From Candidatus Velamenicoccus archaeovorus (GTDB lineage: Bacteria; Omnitrophota; Gorgyraeia; Velamenicoccales; Velamenicoccaceae), in the NCBI RefSeq assembly GCF_004102945.1, contig NZ_CP019384.1:930001-962000 (forward strand): a stretch of 32,000 nucleotides of DNA. The letters run 5' to 3'. The notes under the pieces are model-generated. The model was not told the origin of the DNA, did no database searches, and saw nothing but the letters and a program-made list of their open reading frames with translations. Below, piece after piece: positions 5,111-21,310 of this stretch. How positions within the stretch are numbered: the stretch's first letter is position 1; the number at the start of each line of letters is the position of its first letter. Position numbers and translations under genes: made by a program.

Positions 5111-5155
5111 AATAAAGAGGGACGCTTGTGGCAACCACAAGCGTCCCTCTTTATT
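5111..5155 (-). terminator. rho-independent terminator downstream of gap (perfect 21-bp inverted repeat, structurally bidirectional)
   Basis: aataaagagggacgcttgtgg (5111..5131), loop caa, ccacaagcgtccctctttatt (5135..5155). A GC-rich core stem is followed by UUUAUU on either strand. It sits 35 nt after the gap stop. Confidence 0.65.
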
Positions 5156-5189
5156 TCCATCATCGGCAACAGACGGTGATTCTTGGAGT

Positions 5190-6325
<1,136 letters not shown>

Positions 6326-6348
6326 TGGATTTTAGAATTAGGAATTGT

Positions 6349-7350
6349 TTATATCCTTACGTCCCTCAGGTATTTAATCGCGACTTCCGGCGGCGTGGAG
6401 ACCGCATAAAACCCTGTTCCCCATTCGAAGCCTGCGATGCGGCTCAGGCGCGGCATGATCTCCATATGCCAGTGATACCCCTGCCGTTCTTCCCCGTCGA
6501 TAGGCGAGGTATGGATGATAAAATTATACGGCGGATCGTTCAGGACCGCCTTCATTCTTATGAGCACTTCTTTTAATATCCCGGCCATGCTGGCAATGCT
6601 CTCGTCGGAGATGTTATGGAAAAACAACTGGTGTTCTTTCGGCATTACCCACATCTCGAAAGGGAAGCGTGAGGCAAAAGGGCAAAACGCGATAAACTGG
6701 TCGTTTTGCGTGATGATCCGTTCTTTTTCATCCAATTCCTGGCGGATCATATCGCAGAAGATGCAGCGTTCCCGGAACTCAAAATAGGCCCCGGATCCTT
6801 TCAGCTCCTCGATCACGTTTTTGGGGATCATGGGCAGGGCGATGAGCTGGCTGTGGTTGTGATCGAGTGTCGCGCCGGCGCCGCTGCCGTAATTCTTGAA
6901 AATCATGAGGTATTTGAAGCGTTTGTCTTTTTGGAGGTCCAGGGAACGCAGGCAATACATCTTGAGGACGTTCCCGATTTCTCCTAGCTCCAGGTCGGAC
7001 AGGTCTTTCTCGTGGTAAGGGGTTTCAATGATGATCTCGTGAGCGCCGATGCCGTTGGACATATCGAAGATCCCCAACCCTCTTCTGTCGAGATTACCTT
7101 CGATCTGGAGCGCCGGGAATTTATTGGGCACCACCCTCACCTGCCATCCGGCCGCGTTCTTCTCGGTTTTTGGGTTGCGAAAGGCCTGGATTTCCGGCGG
7201 CGTCATATATTCGTTGCCGTAACAAAACGGGCAATTGGCCGCATCCTCGTAATGATGCGGCGTCATGTGCAGGTCTTTGGGTATCATGGGCTGGTCCATT
7301 TCCATGATGACCCAGCGTCCGACAATGGGGTCTCGCCTGAGCTCTGTCAC
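6349..7350 (-). CDS. galT: galactose-1-phosphate uridylyltransferase family protein (HIT-type, catalytic HxH intact)
   Basis: 333 aa, with a GTG start in a GTGA overlap with the upstream gene. RRDPIVGRWVIM N-terminus; CPFCYGNE zinc CxxC; GIGAHEIIIETP; H164-N-H166-SQ (nt 6853..6861); YHWHMEIMPR. Confidence 0.8.
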   Translation of the reverse strand: MTELRRDPIVGRWVIMEMDQPMIPKDLHMTPHHYEDAANCPFCYGNEYMTPPEIQAFRNPKTEKNAAGWQVRVVPNKFPALQIEGNLDRRGLGIFDMSNGIGAHEIIIETPYHEKDLSDLELGEIGNVLKMYCLRSLDLQKDKRFKYLMIFKNYGSGAGATLDHNHSQLIALPMIPKNVIEELKGSGAYFEFRERCIFCDMIRQELDEKERIITQNDQFIAFCPFASRFPFEMWVMPKEHQLFFHNISDESIASMAGILKEVLIRMKAVLNDPPYNFIIHTSPIDGEERQGYHWHMEIMPRLSRIAGFEWGTGFYAVSTPPEVAIKYLRDVRI

Positions 7351-8375
7351 TCCTCAACCTCCCTGAGGTATTGCGCCGCGTCTTCCGGGGTGATGGGGCA
7401 GATATAAAACCCTGTTCCCCATTCGAAGCCTGCTGTGCTGCCTAATCTGGGAATGATCTCTATGTGCCAGTGATAATCGTCTTCGATGGTTGTCCAGTAC
7501 CCCGTTTTTGCTTTTTTCCTGCGGAAAGGGGCCGTATGAAGGACGATGTTGTATGCCGGGTCGTCTAGGGCCACTTTTAACTTTGTTAAGACTTTTTTTA
7601 AGACTTTACCCAAGTAGAGGCGCTTTTCGACGCCCATGCTGGAAAAATCGCAATTGTGCTCTTTGGGGAGGATCCAGACCTCGAAAGGAAAACGCGAAGC
7701 GAACGCCGTGACGGCGATAAATCCGTCGAAGTCAAGGACGATCCTGTCTTTCGACTCGATCTCCTGATGGACCAGGTCGCAAAAAACACAACGCTCATGA
7801 TATTCATAGTATTTTTTGGACCCGATCAGCTCCTCTTTGACGCGTTTGGGTGTTACGGGCGTGGCGATCAGTTGGCTGCGGGAATGTTTGACATGCCCTG
7901 CGCCGGCGGCGACCCCGTAGTTTTTAAAGACCAGGACGTATTTGAAGCGTTCGTCTCTCCCTAAATCAACGAAACGGTCGATCCAGCACGTGACGGTTTT
8001 GGCGATCTGCGTCTCTTCCAGATCGGCGATGTTTCCGATGTGTTTGGGCGTTTCGATGATGACTTCATGGGCGCCTATGCCGCTCATGACGTCATAGAGC
8101 CCCCGCCCGTGCCTGTTGATGCTGCCTTCGACCCGCAAAAAAGGTCGCTTGCTGGGGACGACGCGGGTGTCCCAACCGGGCTTGTCCGGCGTGCTTCCCT
8201 CTTTGCGGATGGCAAAGATCTCGTGGGGCGTTTGGTCTTCCTTGCCTTCGCAAAAGGGGCAATCTTCCTCTGTGTCCTTGTGCGAAGGGGCCTTAAAACC
8301 TTTCGGCCTGCGGGAGCGTTCGACCGCGATGATGACCCATCTTCCAATGACGGGATCTTTTCTTAATTCGGGCAT
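7347..8375 (-). CDS. GalT-family paralog with the nucleophile His replaced (H164-S-R166)
   Basis: 342 aa, ATG 8375. It has the same architecture as the downstream paralog: CPFCEGKE, GIGAHEVIIETP and YHWHIEIIPR. The HxHxQ motif, however, reads KHSRSQ (nt 7878..7886). Confidence 0.75.
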   Translation of the reverse strand: MPELRKDPVIGRWVIIAVERSRRPKGFKAPSHKDTEEDCPFCEGKEDQTPHEIFAIRKEGSTPDKPGWDTRVVPSKRPFLRVEGSINRHGRGLYDVMSGIGAHEVIIETPKHIGNIADLEETQIAKTVTCWIDRFVDLGRDERFKYVLVFKNYGVAAGAGHVKHSRSQLIATPVTPKRVKEELIGSKKYYEYHERCVFCDLVHQEIESKDRIVLDFDGFIAVTAFASRFPFEVWILPKEHNCDFSSMGVEKRLYLGKVLKKVLTKLKVALDDPAYNIVLHTAPFRRKKAKTGYWTTIEDDYHWHIEIIPRLGSTAGFEWGTGFYICPITPEDAAQYLREVEE

Positions 8376-8442
8376 TGTCTTTTCCTGGGTACGGTTCTAA
8401 AATGAGACCGTTTAGTCGTTGGGCCCTTAACGTAACTCAGAA

Positions 8443-8470
8443 ATTTTAACACATCACCGCATTCTTGCAA
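8443..8470 (-). promoter_or_regulatory. sigma70-type promoter TTGCAA-N16-(TGt)TAAAAT for the GalT pair
   Basis: Minus strand reads TTGCAAgaatgcggtgatgTGtTAAAAT. The -35 is at 8470..8465 and the extended -10 at 8451..8443. This leaves a 5' UTR of about 60 nt before ATG 8375. Confidence 0.35.
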
Positions 8471-8546
8471 GTATTTTTAAGCGTTTGGACGGGGGTCCGA
8501 TAACCTCCGAAAGCGAGCTCTGTCCGTACAAAACCTGCCTGGATTT

Positions 8547-9482
8547 TTAAGCCCCCAGGATATTTCCGATTTTGACGTCATGTCCGGCCAGGAAGCTGGA
8601 TACAGGCATCTTCCGGTGGGATTCAGGCAGGACTTCGGTAATGATGACCGTACCCCGCTTGCAAGCAATAACCAGGGCATTATCTGCGGCCTTAACGATC
8701 GTCCCCGGCCTTGCTCCACGGACAGGTCGGCCGGGTTTCAGTTCAAGGATTTTAAGGATCTTTCCCCGAAAGTACGTAAAAGTGCCCGGCCATCCGTAAC
8801 ATCCCCGAAAGCGATTATAAATCTGCGCGGGAGTCTCTTGCCAACGGATCAATCCATCTTGCTTGTGCATAAGAGCGGCGTAAGAGACAGCCTTTTCGTG
8901 TTGTTTCTTGAGGCGGCAGCGGCCTTGCTCGATCATGGCGAGGAGCTTATTGATATATTTCGACGCCAAAACAGCCAATTTTTCATCCAGGAGGGGTGCC
9001 GTGTCATCCCGGCCGATCTTTAAGGTTTTTTGCAGAAGGATGTCGCCGCAATCCATGCCTGCGTTCATTTTGATAAATGTAACTCCCGTTGTTTTTTCGC
9101 CGTGGATGAGCGCGCGGTTCACCGGCGCCGCCCCCCTGTATTTCGGCAGGAGCGACGAATGGATATTGATACCCATGATGCGCGGCACATCCAAAAGTCC
9201 GGCCGAAAGGATCCTGCCGTAAGAAACGACGAGAAAAACGTCCGCATTTTCTTTCTTCATTCTTTCCAGCGATTCGGCGTTATTAATATCCTCCGGCTGG
9301 AAGACGTTCAGGCCATGATTGAGGGCAAAGGTCTTGACCGGTGTTGCGCCTAAATGCAGATGGCGCCCTTGTTTCCTGTCAGGCTGCGTCACGACAAGGC
9401 TCACGGGAAACGCGCGCCTGTCGATGTTTTCCAGGATTTTAACGGCAAAGTTTCCGCTGCCGAAAAAGACGATGTTCATCAT
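8547..9482 (-). CDS. fmt: methionyl-tRNA formyltransferase
   Basis: 311 aa. MMNIVFFGSGNFAVKILE; VVTQPDRKQGR; NIHSSLLPKYRGAAPVNRALIHGEKTTGVTFIKM (formyltransferase SLLP/HxSLLPxxRG block); C-terminal Fmt domain. Confidence 0.9.
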   Translation of the reverse strand: MMNIVFFGSGNFAVKILENIDRRAFPVSLVVTQPDRKQGRHLHLGATPVKTFALNHGLNVFQPEDINNAESLERMKKENADVFLVVSYGRILSAGLLDVPRIMGINIHSSLLPKYRGAAPVNRALIHGEKTTGVTFIKMNAGMDCGDILLQKTLKIGRDDTAPLLDEKLAVLASKYINKLLAMIEQGRCRLKKQHEKAVSYAALMHKQDGLIRWQETPAQIYNRFRGCYGWPGTFTYFRGKILKILELKPGRPVRGARPGTIVKAADNALVIACKRGTVIITEVLPESHRKMPVSSFLAGHDVKIGNILGA

Positions 9483-9485
9483 GTG

Positions 9486-11399
9486 TTATTCCCGGGCCGG
9501 GTCAAATGTTGCGATGACGCCGCTGCGGCGGCCGCAGACAATGCGACGCAGGGCCTTCTCTGTTTCCCCGAGTTCCTTGTATTTGATAAGCATTTGATAG
9601 CGGAAACTCCCGCGCAACTTAAACGGCCTGGCGGGTTGCGGCTCAAAAATTTCTGCGGCCGTCGCGTGTCGTTTAAGGGATGTCTTGAGGATCCGAAAAG
9701 CTCTTTTCGCCGCGCTCAGGGCAACGGGTTCTGCGGCCGCCCTTATTGTCAGGATCCCCAACCTGACAACAGGCGGCAAGTTGAGTTCGCGCCGTTCTTC
9801 AAGCTCTTTTTCGAGAAAACCCGCAGTATCCCGTGTTTTAAGAAATCCCCAGACATAATGTTCGGGCATTTTTGTCTGGATGATGAGTTCGCCTGTGGTG
9901 ATGCGCGACAATGTCAGGAAACGGCGAAAGGCATCTTCCGTTGCGCGAAAATCAGGCCGCCCAAGCATGAGGTCCGCCGAAACCACGACGATCCGGTCGA
10001 AACAATGCCTGAAGACATTCGGGTCTTCCAGGATTTCCTGCGTCGCCAGCATTATATCATAAGATTCCGACGGCTCGGCAGTCTTTGAGAATTGCACGAC
10101 CCTGACGGACGGGAAAAGCCTGTGCAGCTCGCTCTCGACTTTTTCAATCCCGAAACCCGAATAGCGCACGTAAGCCGCTGAACATGTGGGGCAGATGTCC
10201 CTGGCCTCTTGCTCCAGATGGCATGCCGGGCAGATCAAACGCTTGATGGTGCGGTAATACGCCACAGGAGAGCTACAGCGTTCGCATTCGACGGCTTTTT
10301 TGCATCTTGGGCAATAAAGAAATGTCGAGAATCCCTTCTGGGGCACGAAGAAAAGCATTTTTTCTTTCTTTTCAAGCAGCTCCGCCACGCGGAATTCCAG
10401 CACTTTGGAGACCATTTTTGTATGGCCCTTGGGAACGAATTCCTGCTGCATATCGACGACGGTGGTCCGCGGCGCCGTTCGCGGCTCACCGCAGCTCAAC
10501 AAAGAGGCTTCCTGGCGTTCCACCAATGCAAAGGCCTCCAGAGAAGGAACGACAGCCCCAAAGACAAGCTTTGTCCCTTCAGCTTGCGCAATTTTGAGCG
10601 CGATATCCCGGATGTGATAATTGGGAACCTGCTGTTGACGATAGGCGAAGTGTCCTTCCTGGTCGACAATGATAAGACCCGGCCGGCGGACCGGAGAAAA
10701 AATCGCGCTGCGTGTTCCTATGACCAGGACCCCTGTTTTCTGCTGCGCTCTTGTCCAGGAATTTCGTACAACAGCCGGTTTCTCGTGGGAAGAGATGACG
10801 CAGGCCGTGATACCTGTTTTTAATTGTTCGCGGGCGTGGGCGATCATCGCATAATCCGGGACAAGCACAAGGGCGTCCTTGCCTTGGGCAAGCGTAGATT
10901 TGACGAGGGCGAGATAGGCCTTCCAGCGCGCATTGCCGGACACATCCTCAAGCACATAGATATTCTTGCGCGGATCCAAGCGATCCAGGAATGCTGTCTC
11001 TTCTTGTGTCAGAGGATCGAGCGAAGAAGGCGTATCGTCGGACACGGTCGTTGCGATATGGCCCATTGAGATTCTTAGGGGGCGGGGCAGGACAGTTTCA
11101 AACCCTTGGGCCAGGGAACAAAAATATTCACGGCTCAGGAAGTGCGCCAACGATATCAGGCGGTCGTTCAGCAACGGCCCATGAGGATCGAGGCATTCCG
11201 ACAAGGGCTTGAGTTTTTTTTCATAGGGAGATGTGCGCTTAAAAGCTGTCACATAACCTATGAGTTGTCTGCGGCCGAAAGGGACCCGGACGCGGCATCC
11301 GACGGCCAGGCTGCTGCGGCAGCGGGCCGGAATACGATAATCGAATGTTTCGTCCAGGGCCAAAGAGACGGGGATTGCTATCTCGGCGATTTTTTTCAT
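9486..11399 (-). CDS. priA: primosomal protein N' (PriA) homolog with degenerate helicase/ATPase motifs
   Basis: 637 aa, collinear with E. coli PriA as I recall it. The N-terminal DNA-binding region, LAQGKDALVLVP, VIGTRSAIF, the four-CxxC zinc region (CPRC..CERC..CPAC..CPTC) and the C-terminal domain are all present. Walker A reads DVSGNARWKAY, DEEH reads DQEGH, GSATP reads GAVVP, and no GRAGR is present. Confidence 0.8.
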   Translation of the reverse strand: MKKIAEIAIPVSLALDETFDYRIPARCRSSLAVGCRVRVPFGRRQLIGYVTAFKRTSPYEKKLKPLSECLDPHGPLLNDRLISLAHFLSREYFCSLAQGFETVLPRPLRISMGHIATTVSDDTPSSLDPLTQEETAFLDRLDPRKNIYVLEDVSGNARWKAYLALVKSTLAQGKDALVLVPDYAMIAHAREQLKTGITACVISSHEKPAVVRNSWTRAQQKTGVLVIGTRSAIFSPVRRPGLIIVDQEGHFAYRQQQVPNYHIRDIALKIAQAEGTKLVFGAVVPSLEAFALVERQEASLLSCGEPRTAPRTTVVDMQQEFVPKGHTKMVSKVLEFRVAELLEKKEKMLFFVPQKGFSTFLYCPRCKKAVECERCSSPVAYYRTIKRLICPACHLEQEARDICPTCSAAYVRYSGFGIEKVESELHRLFPSVRVVQFSKTAEPSESYDIMLATQEILEDPNVFRHCFDRIVVVSADLMLGRPDFRATEDAFRRFLTLSRITTGELIIQTKMPEHYVWGFLKTRDTAGFLEKELEERRELNLPPVVRLGILTIRAAAEPVALSAAKRAFRILKTSLKRHATAAEIFEPQPARPFKLRGSFRYQMLIKYKELGETEKALRRIVCGRRSGVIATFDPARE

Positions 11400-11411
11400 G
11401 CTGTTCTTTTA

Positions 11412-12524
11412 TCAGAGTTGGGCTTCGATAAGATTGACGATATCGACCGTGGAAGCCGGCCGGGCCAAGGCGCGGCAATTAGCGCGGAAGGCATAGAGCT
11501 TTTGTTCGTTCTTTTTAAAATCGAGCACTTCTTTTTCTATGGCCTCCAGGCCGGAAACAATCCTGCCTGCGCCCAGGGCCTGCATCGTATTGGCATTGAT
11601 GGTTTCCTGGCCGGGCAAAAGACAAAAGAGGATCATGGGCAGTTCCATGTTCAAGGCTTCTGTGACGCTCAATCCTCCTGCTTTCGTAACCATGACATCG
11701 GAAACGCGCATCAGTTCCTGCATATTGTCCACGAAACCGAAGGCTTTGATATGAGGATGCCTCATATCGGTAAGGGCCTGATGAAGTTTTTTGTTGTGGC
11801 CGCACACCACCAGGAGCTGCGCATCGTTCTTGAGCCTGTCGGCTATTTCCGCGATAGGGCCTATGCCGATGCCGCCGGTGGCGACCAGAACGGTGAATAC
11901 CCCCTCTTTGACTTCAAGCTTTTTACGGACAGCCGCGGCCTCGTCGACATGGAGGAATTTTTCATCCAGGGGGATGCCCGTCACGACGATTTGCGATTCG
12001 CTGATGCCTTTTTTCATCAGGATATCTTTGGTCGAAGGGGCAGCCGCGCAATAGAGGTCGGTACCGGGGTTGACCCAAAAGTTATGGACGCCGTAATCTG
12101 TGACGACGGTGATGATGCGGGCCTTCAGTCTTTTCTTTATTTTGGCATAGGCGGCGATCTCGGAAGCCAAAAATTGCGTGGAGATGATGATGTCCGGGTC
12201 CTCATCAAGCAAAAAACGCACAAAGGACCTGCAGGCCATGACGTCCATGAAACGCCGCAGGCCCACATTGATCCAGGACAGCCGGGGGCTGTCGCTTAAA
12301 CGATACATCACGGCCCAGAGCCACGGCAGATGGCTGATGACGAACGTATATCCGTCCGAGTAAAGTTTTCTGACAAGAAACGGCATGTATTTGACGACGT
12401 CCGCCGTATGGACATTGCGGTATGCGGATTTTGCCTTATGGAAAATGGCTTCGGCCGCTTTTTTGTGGCCGGAGCCCGCCGTGGCATAAAGGATCAGTAT
12501 TTTCTTGGAATCTTCGACTGTCAT
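11412..12524 (-). CDS. MGDG-synthase-like / processive diacylglycerol glycosyltransferase (GT28, UgtP-like)
   Basis: 370 aa. KILILYATAGSGHKKAAEAI N-terminus; VTDYGVHNFWVNPGTDLY; C-terminal GT28 block VVCGHNKKL...MVTKAGGLSVTEALNMELPMI. Confidence 0.75.
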   Translation of the reverse strand: MTVEDSKKILILYATAGSGHKKAAEAIFHKAKSAYRNVHTADVVKYMPFLVRKLYSDGYTFVISHLPWLWAVMYRLSDSPRLSWINVGLRRFMDVMACRSFVRFLLDEDPDIIISTQFLASEIAAYAKIKKRLKARIITVVTDYGVHNFWVNPGTDLYCAAAPSTKDILMKKGISESQIVVTGIPLDEKFLHVDEAAAVRKKLEVKEGVFTVLVATGGIGIGPIAEIADRLKNDAQLLVVCGHNKKLHQALTDMRHPHIKAFGFVDNMQELMRVSDVMVTKAGGLSVTEALNMELPMILFCLLPGQETINANTMQALGAGRIVSGLEAIEKEVLDFKKNEQKLYAFRANCRALARPASTVDIVNLIEAQL

Positions 12525-13225
12525 GTGGCCAAAAACTCCCGGATTATTTTAAGCCGTTCCTGCGTTCCCATATCGTAAAAAGGACCTTGGGCGACGTACG
12601 CCGCCAGATCGTGATTCCGGATAAGGATGTCATAGACGTCTTCTTCCAGAGAGCAAGGGCGTCCTGCAGGGATTGTCTGCAACAGGTCGTGCTTAAAGAC
12701 TCCGACCCCGCCGGATGCGTAGCTGGCCCCGGAGGATGGAAGTTTTTTGTGATATGCTTTCACGAGTCCATCCTCATTTGTGGTGATATTGAAGGCAGGC
12801 CGGCAGGACGGGTCTTTTGAGACGGCGATCGCACCCATCCTGTCTTGTCGATAAAAAAAGTCGACTAATTCATGAAGTTCAAGCGGAAAGAGCGTATCGC
12901 CGTTCATCAAAATGAAATTGCCGGATATTTTATTCTCGGCCAGCTTGAGGGCGCCGCCTGTTCCCAGCGGCGTCTCTTCGTGAGAATAGGCGATATGCAG
13001 GTCCAGCCCGACGCCGTCCTTGAAATATTCCTCGATCCGCTTGCCCAGATAACCTGTAAGGATCAGGATATCGCGATATCCTTGCGCCTTAAGCATCTGG
13101 AGATCATAATACAGGAAGGGCTTCCCGTGGATGGGCACCATAGGTTTCGGGATGTCGTCCGTCAGGCGGCCCAGGCGCGTCCCCCTGCCGCCGGCTAAAA
13201 TGACAACCTGCATATTTTTGCTCAT
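12521..13225 (-). CDS. sugar-1-phosphate nucleotidyltransferase (HddC-like, possibly heptose-1-P guanylyltransferase)
   Basis: 234 aa. VVILAGGRGTRLGRLTDDIPKPMVPIHGKPFL NTP_transferase signature. It lies immediately downstream of gmhB. Its stop forms an ATGA overlap (12521..12524) with the start of the next gene (11412..12524). Substrate is inferred from context only. Confidence 0.75.
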   Translation of the reverse strand: MSKNMQVVILAGGRGTRLGRLTDDIPKPMVPIHGKPFLYYDLQMLKAQGYRDILILTGYLGKRIEEYFKDGVGLDLHIAYSHEETPLGTGGALKLAENKISGNFILMNGDTLFPLELHELVDFFYRQDRMGAIAVSKDPSCRPAFNITTNEDGLVKAYHKKLPSSGASYASGGVGVFKHDLLQTIPAGRPCSLEEDVYDILIRNHDLAAYVAQGPFYDMGTQERLKIIREFLAT

Positions 13226-13237
13226 CCATCCAGCTTT

Positions 13238-13276
13238 TTAATGAGACTTTAAGGTCTGGCCTAAAAGTCTCATTAA
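13238..13276. repeat. 13-bp perfect inverted repeat with 13-nt loop spanning the gmhB stop codon
   Basis: ttaatgagacttt (13238..13250) and aaagtctcattaa (13264..13276). It is followed on the minus strand by AAAAAGC rather than a U-tract, and lies 12 nt upstream of ATG 13225. Confidence 0.5.
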
Positions 13277-13830
13277 GCGCGTTCGTATCTATTGCCGACG
13301 ATGTGTCTGGCGGCGTCCAGAAGGTTCTTGGCGATGAAATCCGGCAGGACATCCCAGCCGCCGGCGTTTTCGAGCTTCTCGCGGCCGGAAAGCACAAGGA
13401 TCGTCTTGCAACCGAAAAGCTTTCCTGCCTTGACATCTCTTAGGCTGTCGCCGATAAAATATGAATTATCTTTATCCGCTTTTTGGCCCGCCGTCGCCTG
13501 TTTTAAGAGGCCGTCTTTGGGTTTTCTGCAGGCGCAGTTCATCGCGTCGGTATGCAGGCAATAGAGGGCTTTTTCGATCCTGCCTCCCTGCCGCTTTGCC
13601 TGGGTCAGCATACGGTCTGTCATCTTGTCCAGCGTTTCTTTGGAATAAAGCCCTTTGGTGACACCAGCCTGATTGGATATCACAAAGATGCGATAGCCTG
13701 CCTGTGTCAGAAGTCTTACGGCCCGTAAAGACCCGGGCAGAAAACGGAAATCACGCAAACGGGTCACGTATTTGCCGTCGCCGGGGTATTTGTTGATAAC
13801 GCCGTCCCTGTCAAGAAATATGAATTTCAT
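13273..13830 (-). CDS. gmhB: D-glycero-D-manno-heptose 1,7-bisphosphate phosphatase (HAD-IIIA)
   Basis: 185 aa. FLDRDGVIN HAD motif I; ISNQAG motif II; the GmhB zinc motif C-x-H-x5-C-x-C-RKP (CLHTDAMNCACRKPKDGLL); YFIGDSLRD motif. Confidence 0.85.
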   Translation of the reverse strand: MKFIFLDRDGVINKYPGDGKYVTRLRDFRFLPGSLRAVRLLTQAGYRIFVISNQAGVTKGLYSKETLDKMTDRMLTQAKRQGGRIEKALYCLHTDAMNCACRKPKDGLLKQATAGQKADKDNSYFIGDSLRDVKAGKLFGCKTILVLSGREKLENAGGWDVLPDFIAKNLLDAARHIVGNRYERA

Positions 13831-13872
13831 GCCGGTGGGGTTTTGACTTCAGAACACAATTTTAATAACTGG

Positions 13873-13901
13873 TTGACATCGCAGGTAATAATGATAAAAA
13901 T
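13873..13901 (+). promoter_or_regulatory. candidate promoter TTGACA-N17-AAAAAT, 6 nt upstream of the ATG (possible leaderless transcript)
   Basis: ggTTGACAtcgcaggtaataatgatAAAAATaatagcATG. The -35 is at 13873..13878. The -10 is weak (4/6). The geometry matches the 3139..3167 promoter, and there is no SD before ATG 13908. Confidence 0.3.
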
Positions 13902-13907
13902 AATAGC

Positions 13908-15011
13908 ATGGAAAATCAAGCGCGTAAAGAACGCATTCTTGTTGTTCAGCCTTACGGCATCGGCGATACGCTTTTTATCTTTCCTCTTCTCAAAGCCCTC
14001 AAGCTCCAAAGAGATGCAGAACGCCTCGATGTCATCATCGGCCCCAGGACCCGCCAGCTAATGCAGCTCTGTCCCTATGTCGATGAAATCCACGTCATCG
14101 ACAAGGACCTATGGAAACGCATATCCAAGATCGCCGTTTTGCGTGAAAAAATAAAACTTCTTTTCCATTGCGCCTCGAGACATTATGACCTGGCTTTCGA
14201 TTTTTCCATGCAGCCCGAATATTCTTTTTGGGCCAAATTCTTCCTGCGTATTCCCATCATAGCGGGTTTCAATTATAAGAAGAGGAATATCTTTCTTAAC
14301 AAACCTCTGAACCTTCCTGAGCAGGGCTACAGCGGTAAAAGCGTCATTGAATACGTATGCGATTTGGCCGGCTTGATCGGACTGGACATTGCCGACAAAA
14401 AGCCGGAGTTAAGGCTTTCTTCGAATGTCGAAGCAGCGGCGGAGAAACTTCTAAAAGATGGCGGCTGGAGCGGCGGACGCTATATTGTCGTTTCAGCCGG
14501 CGGAGGCGCAACGTGGGGCATGGATGCCTATTACAAACAATGGCCGCCGGAATATTTTGTGCAGTTTTTGAAGCTGTTGGGGGTCTTTTTCGATCCCGGC
14601 GCTATCGTGCTTCTAGGGACAGACGACGAGCGGCGTTTCGAAAAGCTTTTTTCCGGTTTATCGGCGCCCATCATCCCTCTTTTCGGAGAAACGGACATCG
14701 CCGAAGCCGCAGCTATTATCAAACATGCCGCTTTATTCATCGGAAATGACGGAGGCCTGGCCCATATCGCTTCCTGCCAGGATATTCCGATGGCCGTTTT
14801 TTATGGGCCTGCCGACCCGAAAGTTTACGGTCCTTATCCTTCAAGAGAAAATGCCGTCGTCTTATCCAGGCGGCTCCCTTGTCAGCCTTGTTATCAGTAT
14901 TTCCGCTATAATAAATCCTGCCAGGACATCGCCTGCCTTAGAGGGCTTCTGCCTGAAGATGCCTTGGCGCAGCTTAATGAAAGACGTTTTTTTGAATTTT
15001 TTAAGAAGTGA
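13908..15011 (+). CDS. glycosyltransferase family 9 (LPS heptosyltransferase-like)
   Basis: 367 aa; the only plus-strand gene. ILVVQPYGIGDTLFIFPLLKALK N-terminus; LLGTDDER; LFIGNDGGLAHIAS; typical GT9 layout. Confidence 0.8.
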   Translation: MENQARKERILVVQPYGIGDTLFIFPLLKALKLQRDAERLDVIIGPRTRQLMQLCPYVDEIHVIDKDLWKRISKIAVLREKIKLLFHCASRHYDLAFDFSMQPEYSFWAKFFLRIPIIAGFNYKKRNIFLNKPLNLPEQGYSGKSVIEYVCDLAGLIGLDIADKKPELRLSSNVEAAAEKLLKDGGWSGGRYIVVSAGGGATWGMDAYYKQWPPEYFVQFLKLLGVFFDPGAIVLLGTDDERRFEKLFSGLSAPIIPLFGETDIAEAAAIIKHAALFIGNDGGLAHIASCQDIPMAVFYGPADPKVYGPYPSRENAVVLSRRLPCQPCYQYFRYNKSCQDIACLRGLLPEDALAQLNERRFFEFFKK

Positions 15012-15023
15012 TCCTGAAGGCGT

Positions 15024-16730
15024 TTAATTCTTCCTTGCCAGATAATCCCCTATCGCCAGATACTCCAGGCCCGATTCCCGGAACATGAGGATGGCATCTT
15101 GCGGCGAGCAGATCATGGGTTCTCCGCGCCTGTTCAAGGATGTATTGATGACGACCGGGACTCTTGTCTTTTTGTGGAAGAGACTGATCAGGCGGTGGAA
15201 TTTTGGGTTGTGGCGTTCATCGACCACTTGCGGTCTGCAGGTGCCGTCCACGTGGACGGCCTCGGGGATCCGTTCTTTCCAGTGGGGCGCCACGTCAAAG
15301 GCGAACGTCATGAAAGGCGCGGGGTGATCGGATCCCAGGATGTCGGAGGCATATTCCTTAAGCATGGACGGGCAGAACGGTCGCCAGCTCTCGCGGAACT
15401 TGATGATGGCGTTGATGCGGTCGTTGGTCCCGCGGATGGTCGGGTTCCCCAGAATGGATCTGTTGCCCAGGGCCCTGGGGCCCCACTCCATTCTTCCCTG
15501 GAACCAGCCGACGATCTTGCCGTCTTTCAGCAGCGAAGATGCCGTCTCGCAGATGTCGGCGCACTTCTCAAACCGAAAACCCGAGGCCTTGAGCACAGGC
15601 TCTATCTGGGCGTTGGTGAATTCAGGGCCGAGATAGACGTGTTCCATGGGGGCGATCTTGTCTCCAAGCTGGGCGGCGACGTAGGCGGCGGCACCCAGCG
15701 AAGTCCCGGAATCGTGCGACGACGGCTGGACCCATAGCTGTTTGACCAGAGGATGCTGGATTAGTTTTCTGTTGATTGAAACATTTAAGGCGCACCCTCC
15801 TGCGAAACAAAGACGGCCTGAGCGTTTCAGGGATTTTTGCAGGCGGTTTTCCAAGAGATGCAGCACAATATCCTCAAAAGTCTTCTGGGTGGCCGCGGCA
15901 ATGTGGATATAGGGTTCAGCCAGGCTGTCTCCTGTGCGCGGCAGCCCCCAATCTTCCACCATTTTTTTAGGGATCAAAACATCAGGATGATAGCGTTGTG
16001 TCCGGATGGGCCAGACATAGTCGTCCGCCACTCGAAAATCCCTACCTTTCGGCCAGATGATATGGGACATGGGGATCTTGCCGGCATCTCCGTAGGGCGC
16101 CATGCCCATAACTTTATACTCGCCGTCACCGATCTCAAAGCCGAGATACGCCGTAACCGTAGAATAAAAATACCCCAGGGAATCCGAAAAGACGATCTCG
16201 TGTAACTTTTCAATTTTTCCATTTCTCGATTCGGCAAAAAGACACGTGGTAAGTTCTCCGGCGCCGTCCAAAGAGAGGATGGCGCTATCTTCGTAACCGG
16301 AAAAATAATAGGCGCTGGCCGCATGGGCCATATGATGCTCTACCAGGTGTATCTTGATGCGCGAACGGTCGATATGGGCTTGCGCAAGCGTGTCGTAGAG
16401 CTTCTTAAGCGCCGCCTCATTTTTCTTTTTTTCCTGTGCGATCACCTTAAAAGCGCGGGAAGTCCTCTTGAATAAAATCCTTCTGGCTACCCTCCATTTC
16501 AGCTGATGATAGATGCTCGTCGACCATGGATAGGCGACATGGTCGATATCCTCGGGTGTCAGGCCGGCGGTCTCAAGGCAAAAGCGTATGGCGTTGACCG
16601 GCAATTGGCCCTCCGCGTGTTTTTTTCTCGTGAAACGTTCTTCGTCGGCCGCAGCAACGACCTTTCCGTCAACGATCAGGGCCGCCGATGGGTCGTGTGT
16701 CAGCGCGCCGCAAATACCGAGGATGACCAT
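15024..16730 (-). CDS. carbamoyltransferase (NodU/CmcH/TobZ family), copy 1
   Basis: 568 aa. Kae1-like N-domain blocks ILGI...HD(P/A)SAAL..DGKVVAA.EEERF and HHMAHAASAYY..; GEYKVMGMAPYG; C-terminal Carbam_trans_C/YrdC-like part NTSLNRRGEPMICSPQDA. Confidence 0.9.
   Translation of the reverse strand: MVILGICGALTHDPSAALIVDGKVVAAADEERFTRKKHAEGQLPVNAIRFCLETAGLTPEDIDHVAYPWSTSIYHQLKWRVARRILFKRTSRAFKVIAQEKKKNEAALKKLYDTLAQAHIDRSRIKIHLVEHHMAHAASAYYFSGYEDSAILSLDGAGELTTCLFAESRNGKIEKLHEIVFSDSLGYFYSTVTAYLGFEIGDGEYKVMGMAPYGDAGKIPMSHIIWPKGRDFRVADDYVWPIRTQRYHPDVLIPKKMVEDWGLPRTGDSLAEPYIHIAAATQKTFEDIVLHLLENRLQKSLKRSGRLCFAGGCALNVSINRKLIQHPLVKQLWVQPSSHDSGTSLGAAAYVAAQLGDKIAPMEHVYLGPEFTNAQIEPVLKASGFRFEKCADICETASSLLKDGKIVGWFQGRMEWGPRALGNRSILGNPTIRGTNDRINAIIKFRESWRPFCPSMLKEYASDILGSDHPAPFMTFAFDVAPHWKERIPEAVHVDGTCRPQVVDERHNPKFHRLISLFHKKTRVPVVINTSLNRRGEPMICSPQDAILMFRESGLEYLAIGDYLARKN
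15038..15678. repeat. 641-bp direct repeat, copy A (100% identical to 17707..18347)
   Basis: I compared every 60-nt line by eye at an offset of 2669 nt and saw no mismatch from 15038 to 15678. The first mismatches are at 15679 and 15681, and identity then decays to ordinary paralog level. The repeat covers the last ~213 codons of the carbamoyltransferase gene. Confidence 0.95.
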
Positions 16731-16733
16731 GAA

Positions 16734-17696
16734 TCAACTCCGCATGTTTGGTTTTTTCATGAAAAGACTGCCCAGAAAAAAACTGTCCGGGCAGTTGTCG
16801 AAAAGGATTTGATTGCCGACGATCTCCACGCCTGCCGGCTCGACGACATCGCGTAAAAGTCTGTCTTTCAGGCCGTAACGCAACCCCTTGTCCAGCCGCG
16901 GGTCATTGCGTCCCGCATCATAATCGAATGTCACGGCAACCATCCCACCGGGTTTTAAAACTCTGTTGATTTCCTGCATTGTCTTGCGCCGGACCTCTGG
17001 AGGCAGGTGCTCCAGGACACAGATACAATAGATTTTGTCGAAGCTTTCGTTTCGGAACGGCAACGGCCGGGCAAGGTCGCGGTTGTAAAGACGCATGTTC
17101 CATCCCATGCGGCGCGCCGCATATCTGGCATTGTAGATTAAACCGTGCTGCCCCCAGTCATAATCAAGGACGTGCGTCGAACAGCCCAGCGACGCCACAT
17201 AGAAAGAGAATACCGTAGAAGCGCCCCCCAAATCCAGCACGATGTCGGTGGCCTGCGGCATTGCATGGGTCAAGATCCAGGCGTTTTCCCAGAGTTTGTT
17301 ACGTTCCTTCTCCGATATAAAATCTTTAGCCTTAAAGCTGCCAGCGGCAGAGGTGCATCTTAATCCTGAAGTCTGGAGTCTTGTGCGGAGGTCTTCTAAA
17401 GCAAGGGCTAAGGCATGGGTGCGGGTTTCGGCAAGATCGGTCTCGCGCTCCATAAACGTTTTATTGATGACAGGGATCTTGGCAGGACCAAGACAGGCTT
17501 CCTGCATAAATGTCTCTTCTTGCGTTTTTGTTATCGCGCCGGATTTTTTTCTGGGTATCCGTTTGGCCAGGGATCTTGTCCATTTGACAGCCAACAGATA
17601 AAGACGATAGGTCAATGGAACGCAACGCGGCACGATATCGTCGCAAAATAATATCCTGAATGTCGTGCTGTGCCTGCGTTTTTTAGGTTCCGTCAT
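16734..17696 (-). CDS. class I SAM-dependent methyltransferase
   Basis: 320 aa. VLDLGGASTVFSFYVASLG (motif I variant); FDKIYCICVLEHLP; INRVLKPGGMVAVTFDYD. The start forms an ATGA overlap (17693..17696) with the upstream carbamoyltransferase. The N-terminal ~130 aa has no recognisable motif, so a later start (M64 or M82) is possible. Confidence 0.7.
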   Translation of the reverse strand: MTEPKKRRHSTTFRILFCDDIVPRCVPLTYRLYLLAVKWTRSLAKRIPRKKSGAITKTQEETFMQEACLGPAKIPVINKTFMERETDLAETRTHALALALEDLRTRLQTSGLRCTSAAGSFKAKDFISEKERNKLWENAWILTHAMPQATDIVLDLGGASTVFSFYVASLGCSTHVLDYDWGQHGLIYNARYAARRMGWNMRLYNRDLARPLPFRNESFDKIYCICVLEHLPPEVRRKTMQEINRVLKPGGMVAVTFDYDAGRNDPRLDKGLRYGLKDRLLRDVVEPAGVEIVGNQILFDNCPDSFFLGSLFMKKPNMRS

Positions 17697-19405
17697 GATT
17701 TTTTGACCAGATAATCCCCTATCGCCAGATACTCCAGGCCCGATTCCCGGAACATGAGGATGGCATCTTGCGGCGAGCAGATCATGGGTTCTCCGCGCCT
17801 GTTCAAGGATGTATTGATGACGACCGGGACTCTTGTCTTTTTGTGGAAGAGACTGATCAGGCGGTGGAATTTTGGGTTGTGGCGTTCATCGACCACTTGC
17901 GGTCTGCAGGTGCCGTCCACGTGGACGGCCTCGGGGATCCGTTCTTTCCAGTGGGGCGCCACGTCAAAGGCGAACGTCATGAAAGGCGCGGGGTGATCGG
18001 ATCCCAGGATGTCGGAGGCATATTCCTTAAGCATGGACGGGCAGAACGGTCGCCAGCTCTCGCGGAACTTGATGATGGCGTTGATGCGGTCGTTGGTCCC
18101 GCGGATGGTCGGGTTCCCCAGAATGGATCTGTTGCCCAGGGCCCTGGGGCCCCACTCCATTCTTCCCTGGAACCAGCCGACGATCTTGCCGTCTTTCAGC
18201 AGCGAAGATGCCGTCTCGCAGATGTCGGCGCACTTCTCAAACCGAAAACCCGAGGCCTTGAGCACAGGCTCTATCTGGGCGTTGGTGAATTCAGGGCCGA
18301 GATAGACGTGTTCCATGGGGGCGATCTTGTCTCCAAGCTGGGCGGCGGCATAGGCGGCGGCACCAATAGAGCCGCCCGCATCATGGGAAGACGGCTGCAC
18401 CCACAAATTTTTGACGAGTGGATGTTTCAACAAAATGCGATTTAATGAAACGTTAAGAGCGCAACCGCCGGCAAAACACAGATTTCCATGGCTTTTCAGC
18501 TCCTGGGCCAAATACGTTTCAAGAAGCCTAATGGTTGTGTCTTCAAGTTTTCTCTGGGTTGCAGCTGCAATGTGGATATAAGGCACATTAAGCTCGTCGC
18601 CTTCGCGCTCGGGCCCAAATTCCTTGATCATCTTCCTGGAATAGACCTTGTCCGGCCTGGCCCGTTTGCTCCTGGGGACCCAGACATAATCGTCGTTGCA
18701 CCTGTAAGTCCTGCGCCGAGGGTTCCACCAGAGGATATGGTCCAGATTAACCTTCCAGGCATCTCCGTAGGGCGCCATGCCCATGACTTTGTATTCGCCA
18801 TCCTCACGCTCGAAGCCGAGATATTCGGTCATCGTCGAATAAAAATTCCCGAGGGAATCCGGCGCTACGATCTCCTTGATTTTACTGATGGCTGCGCCCT
18901 CGGCGCGGCCGATCAGCGTTGAGGTGATTTCGCCGCCCCCATCGATGGACAATACAGCAGCCGTCTTAAAGCCGGAAAGAAAATAGCTCGATGCCGCATG
19001 GGCGATGTGATGTTCGATCCAGTGGATTTGAGGCTGATGCTTGTCGAATCCGCTTTCACGCAAGGTCCGGGCAATAAAAGCAGCCTGGCCCCTGTACTCC
19101 TTCATGTTGCGGAAGAATTTCTTATAGGCCCGCGAAGGATTTGAGACAAAAGTACGAAAAAAATATTCCCAGCGCCTTTGGCGTAACGCCGATAGCGCCC
19201 ACGGAAAAGCCACCGCATCGATGTCCTGCGGCTTCAAACCCGCTGTTTCTAAACAGAATTTAACGGATTGGCGGGGACATTCGTCTTTAGCGTGTTTCCT
19301 GCGCGAAAAGCGTTCTTCCTCAACAGCCGCCACAACTTTGCCGTCTACCAAAAGCGCAGCCGAAGCATCGTGTCCAAAAGGTGCGGCAATCCCTAAAATT
19401 TTCAT
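17693..19405 (-). CDS. carbamoyltransferase (NodU/CmcH/TobZ family), copy 2
   Basis: 570 aa with the same family blocks as copy 1. The N-terminal ~355 aa is roughly 55-60% identical to copy 1 (hand alignment). The following ~213 aa are identical, and the last 3 residues differ. Confidence 0.9.
   Translation of the reverse strand: MKILGIAAPFGHDASAALLVDGKVVAAVEEERFSRRKHAKDECPRQSVKFCLETAGLKPQDIDAVAFPWALSALRQRRWEYFFRTFVSNPSRAYKKFFRNMKEYRGQAAFIARTLRESGFDKHQPQIHWIEHHIAHAASSYFLSGFKTAAVLSIDGGGEITSTLIGRAEGAAISKIKEIVAPDSLGNFYSTMTEYLGFEREDGEYKVMGMAPYGDAWKVNLDHILWWNPRRRTYRCNDDYVWVPRSKRARPDKVYSRKMIKEFGPEREGDELNVPYIHIAAATQRKLEDTTIRLLETYLAQELKSHGNLCFAGGCALNVSLNRILLKHPLVKNLWVQPSSHDAGGSIGAAAYAAAQLGDKIAPMEHVYLGPEFTNAQIEPVLKASGFRFEKCADICETASSLLKDGKIVGWFQGRMEWGPRALGNRSILGNPTIRGTNDRINAIIKFRESWRPFCPSMLKEYASDILGSDHPAPFMTFAFDVAPHWKERIPEAVHVDGTCRPQVVDERHNPKFHRLISLFHKKTRVPVVINTSLNRRGEPMICSPQDAILMFRESGLEYLAIGDYLVKKS
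17707..18347. repeat. 641-bp direct repeat, copy B (100% identical to 15038..15678)
   Basis: See copy A. ORF-track translations in three frames (for example 15085..15327 versus 17754..17996, and 15340..15636 versus 18009..18305) are also identical. Confidence 0.95.
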
Positions 19406-20208
19406 AAGTCTTTTCTGTGCTCTGTAATCTGTTCTCTGCTCTCTGTTTTTTGTTCTTTTTCATCAAGCATCTGGCGGAATTTTGCATAGCTGATCAACTG
19501 ATACATTGTATCGTAAAAAGCTACCATGAAACCGATATAGCCGTCTTTCCAGCCTTTCTTTCCGATGTAACGTCTGAAGAAGCGGTCAATAGCCCTCCAG
19601 GCGATCCGGCCGCGACCCATTTTTCTGTTTGTCGTGATCCATTTCTGAGCTTCCAGCGTCGTCTGACGATTGAGGCTGGCTAAAAAGTGGCCGAAATCCG
19701 GATATCCTTTGTGGACGATGTCGCATTTCAGATGGCCGCAGGTGCCGTCGACAAAAGCCCTTGGATGGACGACGACATCTTCATATTTGAATTTATTCTT
19801 GTCGAAAAGCCTTACCTTGGCCGCCGGATACCAGCCGCCGTAACGCACCCAGTGGTTCCCTATATAGTTACGCAAAGGCACGGAAAAACAGGCATGCTCC
19901 GTTGAAGCGATGGCGGCAGTTATCTCCGATTGAAGCTCCGGTGTCACGGTCTCATCTGCATCAAGGCTCAAGACCCAGGCATTACGGGCCTGCGCATAGG
20001 CCCAATTGCGATGGGTGCCCTCCACGTCCATTTTTTTAATGAGGACCTTATCCGCCAGCTCCTGGGCGATAGGTACCGTTTTATCGGAGCTCATATCGTC
20101 TACGACGATGATTTCGTCCGCCCAGCCTTTAAGAGATTTGATACAAGCGGCGATATTTTCTTCTTCATTTTTTGTCAGTATCACAACGCTCAACCCTGTC
20201 TTAGACAT
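19402..20208 (-). CDS. glycosyltransferase family 2
   Basis: 268 aa. LSVVILTKNEEENIAACIKSL, IIVVDDMSSDKT and LSLDADE (DxD) are typical GT-A/GT2 blocks. Confidence 0.85.
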   Translation of the reverse strand: MSKTGLSVVILTKNEEENIAACIKSLKGWADEIIVVDDMSSDKTVPIAQELADKVLIKKMDVEGTHRNWAYAQARNAWVLSLDADETVTPELQSEITAAIASTEHACFSVPLRNYIGNHWVRYGGWYPAAKVRLFDKNKFKYEDVVVHPRAFVDGTCGHLKCDIVHKGYPDFGHFLASLNRQTTLEAQKWITTNRKMGRGRIAWRAIDRFFRRYIGKKGWKDGYIGFMVAFYDTMYQLISYAKFRQMLDEKEQKTESREQITEHRKDL

Positions 20209-21310
20209 GTTTAACCAGCCTTTTTAGTGTTTGTGCCACGTATATAATCTGTTTTTTCGTTATATGGGGATGGATCGGCAAACAAAGCACGTCGCGGCAT
20301 ACCCTCTCTGCGACCGGGAAATCTCCGCGGCGATAACCCAGGTGCCTGTAAACAGGCTGCAGATGCAAAGGCACCGGATAATGCACGGCCGCGCTGATCC
20401 CGGCTGAAATAAGACCCTCTAAAACTTTGTCGCGGTTTTTCACTCGAATAGCATAAATATGATATACGTGTTTTCCGTAACCGGCCACCCTGGGCAGCCG
20501 GATGCCTGGAATATCGCCGAGATATTTGTCGTACATTTCGGCCACGCCGATCCTTTTTTGATTCCAAACATCGAGGTGCCGCAGTTTGGCATTTAAAAAT
20601 ACCGCCTGCACCGAATCCAGGCGTGAATTGAACCCTATGGACCCGTGCACATATTTTGATATGCGGCCATAATCACGAAGTTTCTTCAGTTTCTGGTACA
20701 GCTGCTTGCTGTTTGTCGCTATCAGGCCTGCATCCCCGAATGCGCCGAGATTCTTGGTAGGATAAAAACTGAAGGCGCCGATATCGCCGATGGAGCCGGC
20801 CTTGCGACCACGGTATTGCGCCCCATGCGCCTGGGCTGTGTCTTCGATGATGCGAAGTCCGTGTTTTCGCGCTATCTTGCGGATGGGGTCCATATCCGCC
20901 GCCTGGCCGTAGAGATGCACCGGCATAATGGCTTTGGTTCGTTTCGTGATGACGCGTTCGATTGTTTGAGGATCGATATTAAACGTGGCTTCGTCAATAT
21001 CGGCAAAAACGGGCCTCGCGCCTGTATACGTCACGGCAAAAGCCGAAGCAATGTATGTATATGCGGGCACGATAACTTCATCCCCCCGGCCGACCCCAAG
21101 GCTCAAAAGCCCAAGGAACAACGCATCCGTTCCCGAATTGACGCCGATAGCATACCGACAGCCGATATACGAGGCGAAGGATTCTTCGAAATACCGGACA
21201 TCTTGGCCGAGGATATAATCGCTGCGTTGTATCAGAGCGTCGTTCAATCTTGAGATTTCTTTTTCTGTTTCGCGGTATTGCGCCGCAAGATCTACAAAAC
21301 GCACCTTCAT
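20201..21310 (-). CDS. DegT/DnrJ/EryC1/StrS-family PLP-dependent sugar aminotransferase
   Basis: ORF 20201..21430 trimmed to ATG 21310, because MKVRFVDLAAQY is the canonical family N-terminus. GVNSGTDAL; the PLP-lysine block SFYPTKNLGAFGDAG; VHYPVPLHLQP. Confidence 0.85.
   Translation of the reverse strand: MKVRFVDLAAQYRETEKEISRLNDALIQRSDYILGQDVRYFEESFASYIGCRYAIGVNSGTDALFLGLLSLGVGRGDEVIVPAYTYIASAFAVTYTGARPVFADIDEATFNIDPQTIERVITKRTKAIMPVHLYGQAADMDPIRKIARKHGLRIIEDTAQAHGAQYRGRKAGSIGDIGAFSFYPTKNLGAFGDAGLIATNSKQLYQKLKKLRDYGRISKYVHGSIGFNSRLDSVQAVFLNAKLRHLDVWNQKRIGVAEMYDKYLGDIPGIRLPRVAGYGKHVYHIYAIRVKNRDKVLEGLISAGISAAVHYPVPLHLQPVYRHLGYRRGDFPVAERVCRDVLCLPIHPHITKKQIIYVAQTLKRLVKHV

Follow-up and report, generated by a model that had tools for sequence, protein, structure and literature searches.

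Probable recurrent gene conversion of a shared activation domain in two paralogous carbamoyltransferase genes of Candidatus Velamenicoccus archaeovorus

The window analysed here is a stretch of 32,000 nucleotides (nt) of Candidatus Velamenicoccus archaeovorus (contig NZ_CP019384.1, positions 930,001 to 962,000). The source organism has not been grown in pure culture and belongs to the Omnitrophota, a poorly known phylum. Two paralogous genes of the window, predicted to encode O-carbamoyltransferases and called here CT-A and CT-B, contain the same 641 bp in direct orientation, covering the linker and nearly the whole of the C-terminal YrdC-like domain, while their N-terminal Kae1-like halves are diverged. 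It is our view, to which we would give a probability of roughly 85%, that the segment of linker and YrdC-like domain is kept identical by recurrent intrachromosomal gene conversion between the direct copies. The features on which this reading turns are as follows.

15024..16730, minus strand: CT-A, a class III (TobZ/NodU-type) carbamoyltransferase of 568 amino acids with an 'A'-type Kae1-like half (PF02543 and PF16861)
17693..19405, minus strand: CT-B, the paralogous carbamoyltransferase of 570 amino acids with a 'B'-type N-terminal half (assigned by Pfam); its stop overlaps the start of a methyltransferase gene (ATGA)
15038..15678, minus strand: repeat copy 1, codons 351-565 of CT-A, comprising the linker and nearly the whole YrdC-like domain (Carbam_trans_C)
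17707..18347, minus strand: repeat copy 2, codons 353-567 of CT-B, the same segment as copy 1
15679..15810 (counterpart 18348-18480), minus strand: transition zone in which the Kae1-like domain ends, taken as the conversion frontier; identity falls here from ~94% to ~60%

A preliminary description of this DNA, made from its sequence, had claimed that 15038..15678 and 17707..18347 are equal without a mismatch. Direct comparison of the bases bears this out (641 of 641 identical, at an offset of 2669), with both copies on the minus strand and each inside a carbamoyltransferase open reading frame (ORF). When the 32-kb window was compared with itself, no further long repeat was found besides the 641-bp block. 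The translated alignment also agrees with the earlier report that the C-terminal residues beyond the block differ, these reading ..GDYLARKN in CT-A and ..GDYLVKKS in CT-B. At its other edge the block had been said to end abruptly near codon 355. The position was right, since the block starts at codon 351 or 353, but the edge is graded over a short distance instead of falling in one step: 17 of the 22 positions directly beyond 15678 still match, and identity upstream of the block in windows of 30 codons declines from 0.94 to 0.79 and then to ~0.6, a decay over about 25 codons. The halves further upstream are diverged as described, with a protein identity of ~54-55% (54% by BLASTP, 23-83% in windows).

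Identity at third codon positions is 1.00 within the block and ~0.3 upstream of it. A comparison of synonymous divergence across the boundary, which the preliminary description had proposed, gave zero in the block and saturation in the N-terminal halves, where the proportion of synonymous sites that differ (pS) is 0.79 and the nonsynonymous divergence (dN) is 0.45. Judged from these distances, an exact run of 641 bp cannot have arisen by chance against so saturated a background. Purifying selection was ruled out as a cause of the identity, because the synonymous sites are identical too and selection on the protein cannot explain this. As to its content, a coding domain with strong matches in Pfam and the PDB accounts for the whole block.

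Both proteins exceed the gathering score of PF02543 (Carbam_trans_N; E 2e-53 in CT-A and 6e-56 in CT-B) and both match PF16861 (Carbam_trans_C; E 6.5e-68 and 1.8e-68, at residues 399-567 in CT-A). CT-A aligns over its full length with the structures of TobZ (3ven/3ver, E ~1e-105), GdmN and NovN, the values for TobZ and GdmN ranging from 1e-105 to 1e-87. Metal ligands are predicted in both proteins from the match of motif and position, namely EHHxAH (H132, H136), LSxDG (D155) and SSHD (D340/D342), the iron ligands in GdmN's Kae1-like domain being H133, H137, D156 and D333 (PMC9633730). In class III enzymes adenylation of carbamoyl phosphate is the task of the YrdC-like domain, and it is on the Kae1-like domain that the acceptor is bound and receives the carbamoyl group (PMC9633730), and the roles assigned earlier to the two ends of these proteins, activation to the C-terminal domain and acceptor binding with transfer to the N-terminal one, are in agreement with this literature on GdmN. 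GdmN's Kae1-like domain extends from M1 to L351 and its YrdC-like domain from G368 to A571, and its acceptor-contacting elements all lie within residues 8-246 (PMC9633730). Measured against GdmN, the block sets in (residue 351/353) where the Kae1-like domain stops (L351), and the region of acceptor contact (8-246) maps to the unconverted part of CT-A and CT-B.

NodU proper was considered as an identity for the two proteins and rejected, since they score 178 and 169 bits against the NodU equivalog NF041651, whose cut-off is 1000. Orthologues of the A-type N-terminal half were found in loci L007, L090 and L006 and orthologues of the B-type in L001, L003, L007, L090 and L091, with a ratio of nonsynonymous to synonymous divergence (dN/dS) of ~0.03-0.05 for both types. 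These ratios, together with predicted metal ligands that neither protein has lost, make both CT-A and CT-B look functional. We regard them as ancient paralogues within the TobZ/NodU class of two-domain O-carbamoyltransferases. Look-ups of the exact proteins CT-A, CT-B and P0223 (the A-type protein of a close strain, described below) found none on record, and the comparisons presented here are with relatives.

The evidence that speaks most directly for recurrent conversion comes from the orthologous loci of related genomes, a comparison that the preliminary description had also proposed. The gene order GT2 glycosyltransferase, CT-B, methyltransferase, CT-A (and GT9) is the same in L007 (GCA_028712495.1) and in L089/L090, which are one sample in two assemblies (JGI 3300033889 and GCA_030154505.1). 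Within these genomes CT-A and CT-B share exact runs of 661 bp (L007) and 659 bp (L089/L090). The block starts at nt 1036 of CT-A in L007 and L090, as against nt 1053 in the window, and ends at nt 1696, 1694 and 1693 in L007, L090 and the window respectively, so that the conversion frontier of the two relatives is at most 17 nt from its position in the window. Inside each of the three genomes the synonymous divergence (dS) of the block is 0; between genomes the block is 88-91% identical, with a dS of 0.48-0.65. The N-terminal halves are 79-85% identical in nucleotides when A is compared with A, 80-89% when B is compared with B and ~56% when A is compared with B. The N-terminal halves group by type and the C-terminal blocks by genome, a grouping taken from distance matrices and not from a formal tree test.

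Closer relatives repeat this pattern on a smaller scale. Contig 20745 is from a close strain of the window, its A and B fronts (proteins P0223 and P0229) being 97% and 99% identical in protein, and its block differs from that of the window by three amino-acid changes, all three of which are present in both paralogues. Contig 7167 (P0226/P0240) has 12 amino-acid changes with respect to the window block, again 12 of 12 in both paralogues, although this pair is ~99% identical to L090 and belongs to the same lineage rather than to an extra one. Paralogues that are identical within genomes, orthologues that are diverged between genomes and adjacent segments that group discordantly together support concerted evolution by gene conversion, and the comparison of these sequences argues for an ongoing process and not for one recent event. 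A single ancestral event would be insufficient, because it would not give identical paralogues within genomes alongside diverged orthologues between them. The earlier suggestion that gene conversion homogenised the donor-activating domain and left two different acceptor domains has in this way held up, and the pattern extends to other lineages, whose versions of the block differ from one another.

The process may be pictured as follows. The YrdC-like module, with its linker, would make carbamoyl-AMP from carbamoyl phosphate and ATP and so provide one activation module common to both enzymes. Conversion would take place by ordinary homologous recombination of the RecA type between direct copies 2.7 kb apart, and would leave unconverted the Kae1-like halves, which are predicted to hold the acceptor pocket and to carry out the transfer. 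The 5' frontier could be self-maintaining, with tracts stopping where identity runs out, and selection against tracts that replace the specificity half could strengthen it. The 3' frontier would be set by the differing downstream contexts, the tail of CT-B holding the start of the methyltransferase gene and that of CT-A abutting the end of the GT9 gene (in the window the CT-A stop is 12 bp from it). Each N-terminal type has orthologues that strong purifying selection preserves, and for this reason two acceptors are probably carbamoylated in the cell, the two enzymes probably acting on different acceptor positions or sugars of a lipopolysaccharide (LPS)-type glycan. Unequal recombination at the repeat would remove or add the methyltransferase gene together with the CT-A front, leaving a gene with a CT-B front and a CT-A tail.

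Haplotypes related in this way to that of the window involve three further features.

16734..17696, minus strand: class I S-adenosylmethionine (SAM)-dependent methyltransferase of 320 amino acids, between the repeat copies (Pfam Methyltransf_25/11/31) and translationally coupled to CT-B
15679..17706, minus strand: 2,028-bp 'loop' made up of the CT-B tail, the methyltransferase and the CT-A N-terminal half, missing from single-gene haplotypes and found as separate short contigs elsewhere
16048..16199, minus strand: second homology patch, at the GEYKVMGMAPYGD motif, 76% identical to 18723-18874 and the apparent crossover point of protein P0003

The preliminary description had predicted that the direct repeats could mediate deletion of the methyltransferase gene together with fusion of the two carbamoyltransferase genes. 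Haplotypes of just this form exist, and from the comparisons that follow we infer the direction of the change, deletion as opposed to insertion. L001/L002, of the same species as the window, and L091-L094 have one carbamoyltransferase between GT2 and GT9, in which an N-terminal half of the B type is followed by the block and then by the tail and downstream sequence of the A type; both groups are without the methyltransferase and the A-type half. The protein represented by L091-L094 is present on 14 contigs from several samples. Three of the single-gene contigs are from Logan and run unbroken through both junctions; because Logan assembly is assumed to resolve few repeats, we take the single-gene state to be the dominant haplotype in those samples and not a shortcut of the assembler. 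When the B-type front halves are compared, L091 pairs with the window (89%) and L001 with L007 (89%). Since each single-gene lineage pairs in this manner with a two-gene lineage, repeated deletion is favoured as the probable origin of the single-gene loci.

Two proteins on JGI contigs bear on the variety of these haplotypes. P0230, on a contig of 9878 bp, departs from the B-type P0229 at one residue only, the last, where it agrees with the A-type tail (VKKA) of P0223, and it is a candidate for a third fusion haplotype, of independent origin and close to the strain of the window. P0003, on a contig of 2336 bp, is a hybrid that is B-type from residue 1 to ~210 and A-type from 211 to 568, joined at the conserved GEYKVMGMAPYGD patch (window 16048-16199 / 18723-18874, 76% identical). 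Either it is a genuine recombinant, or the short contig is a chimera. A more distant lineage, L003-L005, has CT-B and the methyltransferase without CT-A.

The same haplotypes could be read in the opposite direction, with the fused gene as the ancestral state and the methyltransferase and CT-A front inserted later as a cassette that used the C-terminal domain as a homology arm, the duplicate block being a by-product that conversion has not maintained. The tail of the single-gene haplotypes fits such an insertion equally, the L003 lineage has the methyltransferase beside CT-B with no CT-A, and the locus is a recombination hotspot in which the dS between the window and L001 climbs from ~0.00-0.01 in the flanks to 1.5 in GT2. 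Insertion is nonetheless improbable. The A and B halves are similarly diverged among the three two-gene lineages (A 79-84% and B 80-84% in nucleotides), which suggests a long co-residence of the two types; the insertion would have to recur in each lineage with a donor block already identical to that of the recipient; and each single-gene lineage pairs by its B-type front with a two-gene lineage (L091 with the window, L001 with L007).

Slightly less probable again is one recent event confined to this genome, either a domain swap or a single conversion, with no continuing process. The data of the window by themselves fit one event as well as many, and it is the other genomes that decide: at least two further lineages each carry, at this position, a block of their own that is identical between the two genes and stands at a dS of ~0.5 from that of the window, and in the close strain of contig 20745 the three amino-acid changes are carried by both copies. 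Had the event occurred in a common ancestor the copies would have diverged since, which they did not, and independent events in each lineage would themselves amount to a recurrent process.

Recurrent conversion also presupposes that the repeat is real, and the preliminary description had raised the possibility of an assembly chimera, in which a copy was pasted in or collapsed and the true genome has one carbamoyltransferase, or two with differing C-terminal domains. An exact repeat of 641 bp exceeds the length of short reads, single-gene versions of the locus occur in related assemblies, and several related proteins end at 340-527 amino acids, some of them labelled partial, as would be consistent with contigs breaking at or in the repeat and with assemblers struggling there. 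Confinement of the repeat to one assembly was looked for and not found: the architecture and the shared block recur in independent assemblies (L007, L089/L090 and contigs 20745 and 7167), each with a different block sequence. A scan of metagenomes with the methyltransferase found eight loci, mostly on short contigs, two of which are bounded by the repeat. One, L008 (Logan, ERR14064714, 2069 bp, ~84% identical to the window), spans the equivalent of window 17735..15667 and has its ends 29 and 12 nt inside the two repeat copies; the other, L099 (JGI Ga0265297, 2261 bp), corresponds to 17830..15569 and reaches 124 and 110 nt into them. Termini just inside both copies are what is expected of a graph-based (de Bruijn) assembler at a true repeat. 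L008 and the single-gene contig L002 are from different samples (ERR14064714 and SRR29307520). The CT-A orthologue of L008 (L008:1005-2069) has an in-frame TAG at codon 325, which may be a sequencing error or mark a pseudogene.

The close homologues retrieved include no different C-terminal domain, from a matching lineage, that could belong to CT-A or CT-B. A PacBio HiFi study, of what is likely to be the source culture, states that it confirmed the closed genome CP019384, in general terms that are not specific to this locus (PMC12583861), and the supplements of that paper make no mention of carbamoyltransferases. In all likelihood the repeat truly exists in the genome, and an artefact of assembly is the least probable of the explanations considered, given the independent assemblies and the loop contigs from two further samples.

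Several points weigh against recurrent conversion as proposed here. Whole cassettes are frequently exchanged between strains at this locus, which complicates the tally of independent conversion events. The corroborating assemblies are probably short-read metagenome-assembled genomes (MAGs), in which '100%' means too similar to separate, perhaps ~98-99% or more; because short-read assemblers emit both copies from one edge of the graph and may pop bubbles, the exactness of the identity depends on the window's own record and on that one assembly. Conversion itself is proposed from the pattern of the sequences, and the enzyme activity, assigned by homology, is putative, as are the acceptors.

It is conceivable, though on balance we doubt it, that the YrdC-like module is kept identical because it serves as a recombination switch, unequal exchange dropping the methyltransferase and the second acceptor domain and a two-gene donor restoring them. 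If so, populations of this predatory epibiont could vary the decoration of their LPS (one or two carbamoyl groups, with or without methyl) at appreciable frequency, and the position of the conversion frontier would show which part of class III carbamoyltransferases determines specificity.

Partial homogenisation of tandem carbamoyltransferases seems to be widespread in the Omnitrophota. In a distant member of the phylum (L095:874-4277) two directly adjacent carbamoyltransferase genes share an exact block of 1064 bp that starts at the GEYKVMGMAPYGD motif (codon 203) and extends almost as far as the stop, with divergence in the first 200 codons. The tandem pair of L096/L097 (L096:8001-11458) is a mosaic of patches of 97-100% identity on a background of 70-87%, which suggests older or shorter tracts of conversion. 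Homogenisation has in every case spared the N-terminal ~200 residues, the counterpart of which in GdmN holds most of the acceptor contacts (PMC9633730). A scan of genome contigs with the C-terminal domain listed 80 loci from other phyla, and none of these 80 has an internal direct repeat of at least 300 bp; among the matches listed these loci are mostly from Proteobacteria and at most 70% identical, with no close relatives.

The genes around the repeat indicate the setting in which it is maintained.

13908..15011, plus strand: GT9 heptosyltransferase-family gene (PF01075), convergent with CT-A and forming the conserved edge of the variable polysaccharide locus
19402..20208, minus strand: GT2 glycosyltransferase directly upstream of CT-B with a 4-nt overlap, in the same operon-like run

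A DegT-type aminotransferase, GT2, CT-B, the methyltransferase and CT-A form a closely packed run on one strand, the GT2/CT-B and CT-B/methyltransferase junctions overlapping in the manner of ATGA and a gap of 3 nt preceding CT-A. The GT9 gene matches NCBIfam models for heptosyltransferase II/III at scores under the curated cut-off. Beside it are genes for a GmhB-like heptose bisphosphate phosphatase and a sugar-1-phosphate nucleotidyltransferase, and Wzy_C-type, B12-radical-SAM and further genes lie on the opposite side of the carbamoyltransferase run. From its predicted gene content the locus is of the LPS-core/O-antigen type.

Over window 5155-21226, synonymous divergence from L001 climbs steadily in the direction of the variable locus. 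The part that begins with GT9 (window 15033..5155) is 98.4% identical to L001 overall. The dS is 0.00-0.01 in the Gap/glycolytic, GalT-like and PriA genes, 0.05-0.19 across the genes for the monogalactosyldiacylglycerol (MGDG)-synthase-like protein, the nucleotidyltransferase, the GmhB-like protein and GT9 (0.19 in GT9), ~0.45 in the block (pS 0.34; a value estimated from third-position identity and not computed directly) and 1.5 in GT2. To the left of the compared stretch the gene content of the window and L001 is wholly different. Such a gradient of dS is, as far as these distances can tell, the signature of a hypervariable surface-polysaccharide locus that is exchanged between strains. With L007 the dS is ~0.5 in the block and GT9 (13908-15678), ~1.0 in the housekeeping flanks and 1.2-1.7 in the N-terminal halves; a more recent exchange of conserved segments between lineages is one possibility for the low values. 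Right after its carbamoyltransferase stop L001 has a hairpin-rich insertion of 131 bp (L001:11714-11845) that is not in the window and may be a small mobile or repeat element.

Elsewhere in the window, 6349-7350 and 7347-8375 are tandem overlapping paralogues of the GalT/HIT-like (galactose-1-phosphate uridylyltransferase) family, with patches of 76-79% nucleotide identity. An ORF of 647 amino acids in the polysaccharide cluster (24133-26076) has no Pfam or NCBIfam match and lies in a stretch of low G+C content (40-43%), and a second stretch of low G+C content (37-41%) is found at 29-32 kb.

An activation module that is kept identical beside a specificity module that has diverged shows how the protein divides into a sharable part and a part specific to the acceptor. 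The unshared part comprises residues 1 to ~350 in this clade and 1 to ~202 in the related pair of L095, and this boundary is a guide for the engineering of domain swaps in enzymes of the TobZ/GdmN type. For the Omnitrophota, the comparisons point to conversion, deletion with fusion, and the formation of hybrid genes as means by which surface-polysaccharide loci diversify. In practical terms, the place at which this repeat causes short-read MAGs to break or be mis-joined can be predicted, and single-gene versions in MAGs need checking before they are interpreted.

Among known enzymes, TobZ, GdmN, NovN, NodU and CmcH have the same two-domain architecture (PF02543 and PF16861) with conserved positions of the His/His/Asp/Asp motif. 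The known members of the TobZ class modify antibiotics or Nod factors, whereas CT-A and CT-B sit in an LPS/polysaccharide locus, and at 568-570 amino acids, against 682-702 for GdmN chains, they are missing the C-terminal dimerisation domain of GdmN. In the class III literature encountered, which was not searched with this aim, there were no tandem paralogues with an identical YrdC-like domain. A nearer parallel in gene context may be WapO of Pseudomonas (PA5005), a putative heptose 7-O-carbamoyltransferase of the LPS inner core, whose gene belongs to a core-oligosaccharide cluster (PMC8005017). The likeness is by context only, the window genes lying near the GT9 heptosyltransferase-family gene, the GmhB-like phosphatase and the nucleotidyltransferase, and WapO is a single gene whereas the window has two paralogues and a methyltransferase. 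C-terminal domains from Pseudomonas and Stutzerimonas loci are 52-54% identical to those of the window, the Pseudomonas matches not being assumed to be WapO.

Repeat-mediated deletion and the formation of hybrid genes are familiar from surface-polysaccharide loci. The present locus resembles these in that direct repeats flank a modification gene, that haplotypes with and without this gene exist and that the hybrid P0003 is joined at a second patch of homology. It is unlike switching systems in that there is as yet no evidence of switching within a population and no invertase or slipped-strand mechanism; any switching would be by plain homologous recombination. Conversion of the kind proposed here is likewise familiar from tufA/tufB and from the babA/babB-type outer-membrane paralogues of Helicobacter pylori. 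Long-lasting conversion limited to a segment of paralogous genes is described, in the parts of these reports consulted, for the duplicated mtrA of methanogen operons (PMC4632066), for bacterial RF1/RF2 (PMC4530459) and for mammalian TLR1/TLR6 (PMC2077338), where, as far as those accounts go, the paralogues are likewise closer within a genome and part of the gene is homogenised across lineages. CT-A and CT-B differ from these three in that the homogenised tract is one catalytic domain of a two-step enzyme, that the copies are 2.7 kb apart in one operon and that the repeat is tied to the presence or absence of a methyltransferase. In its evolutionary behaviour the system is of a known kind, segment-limited gene conversion between paralogues, of which it is a new instance, found in several lineages of the Omnitrophota.

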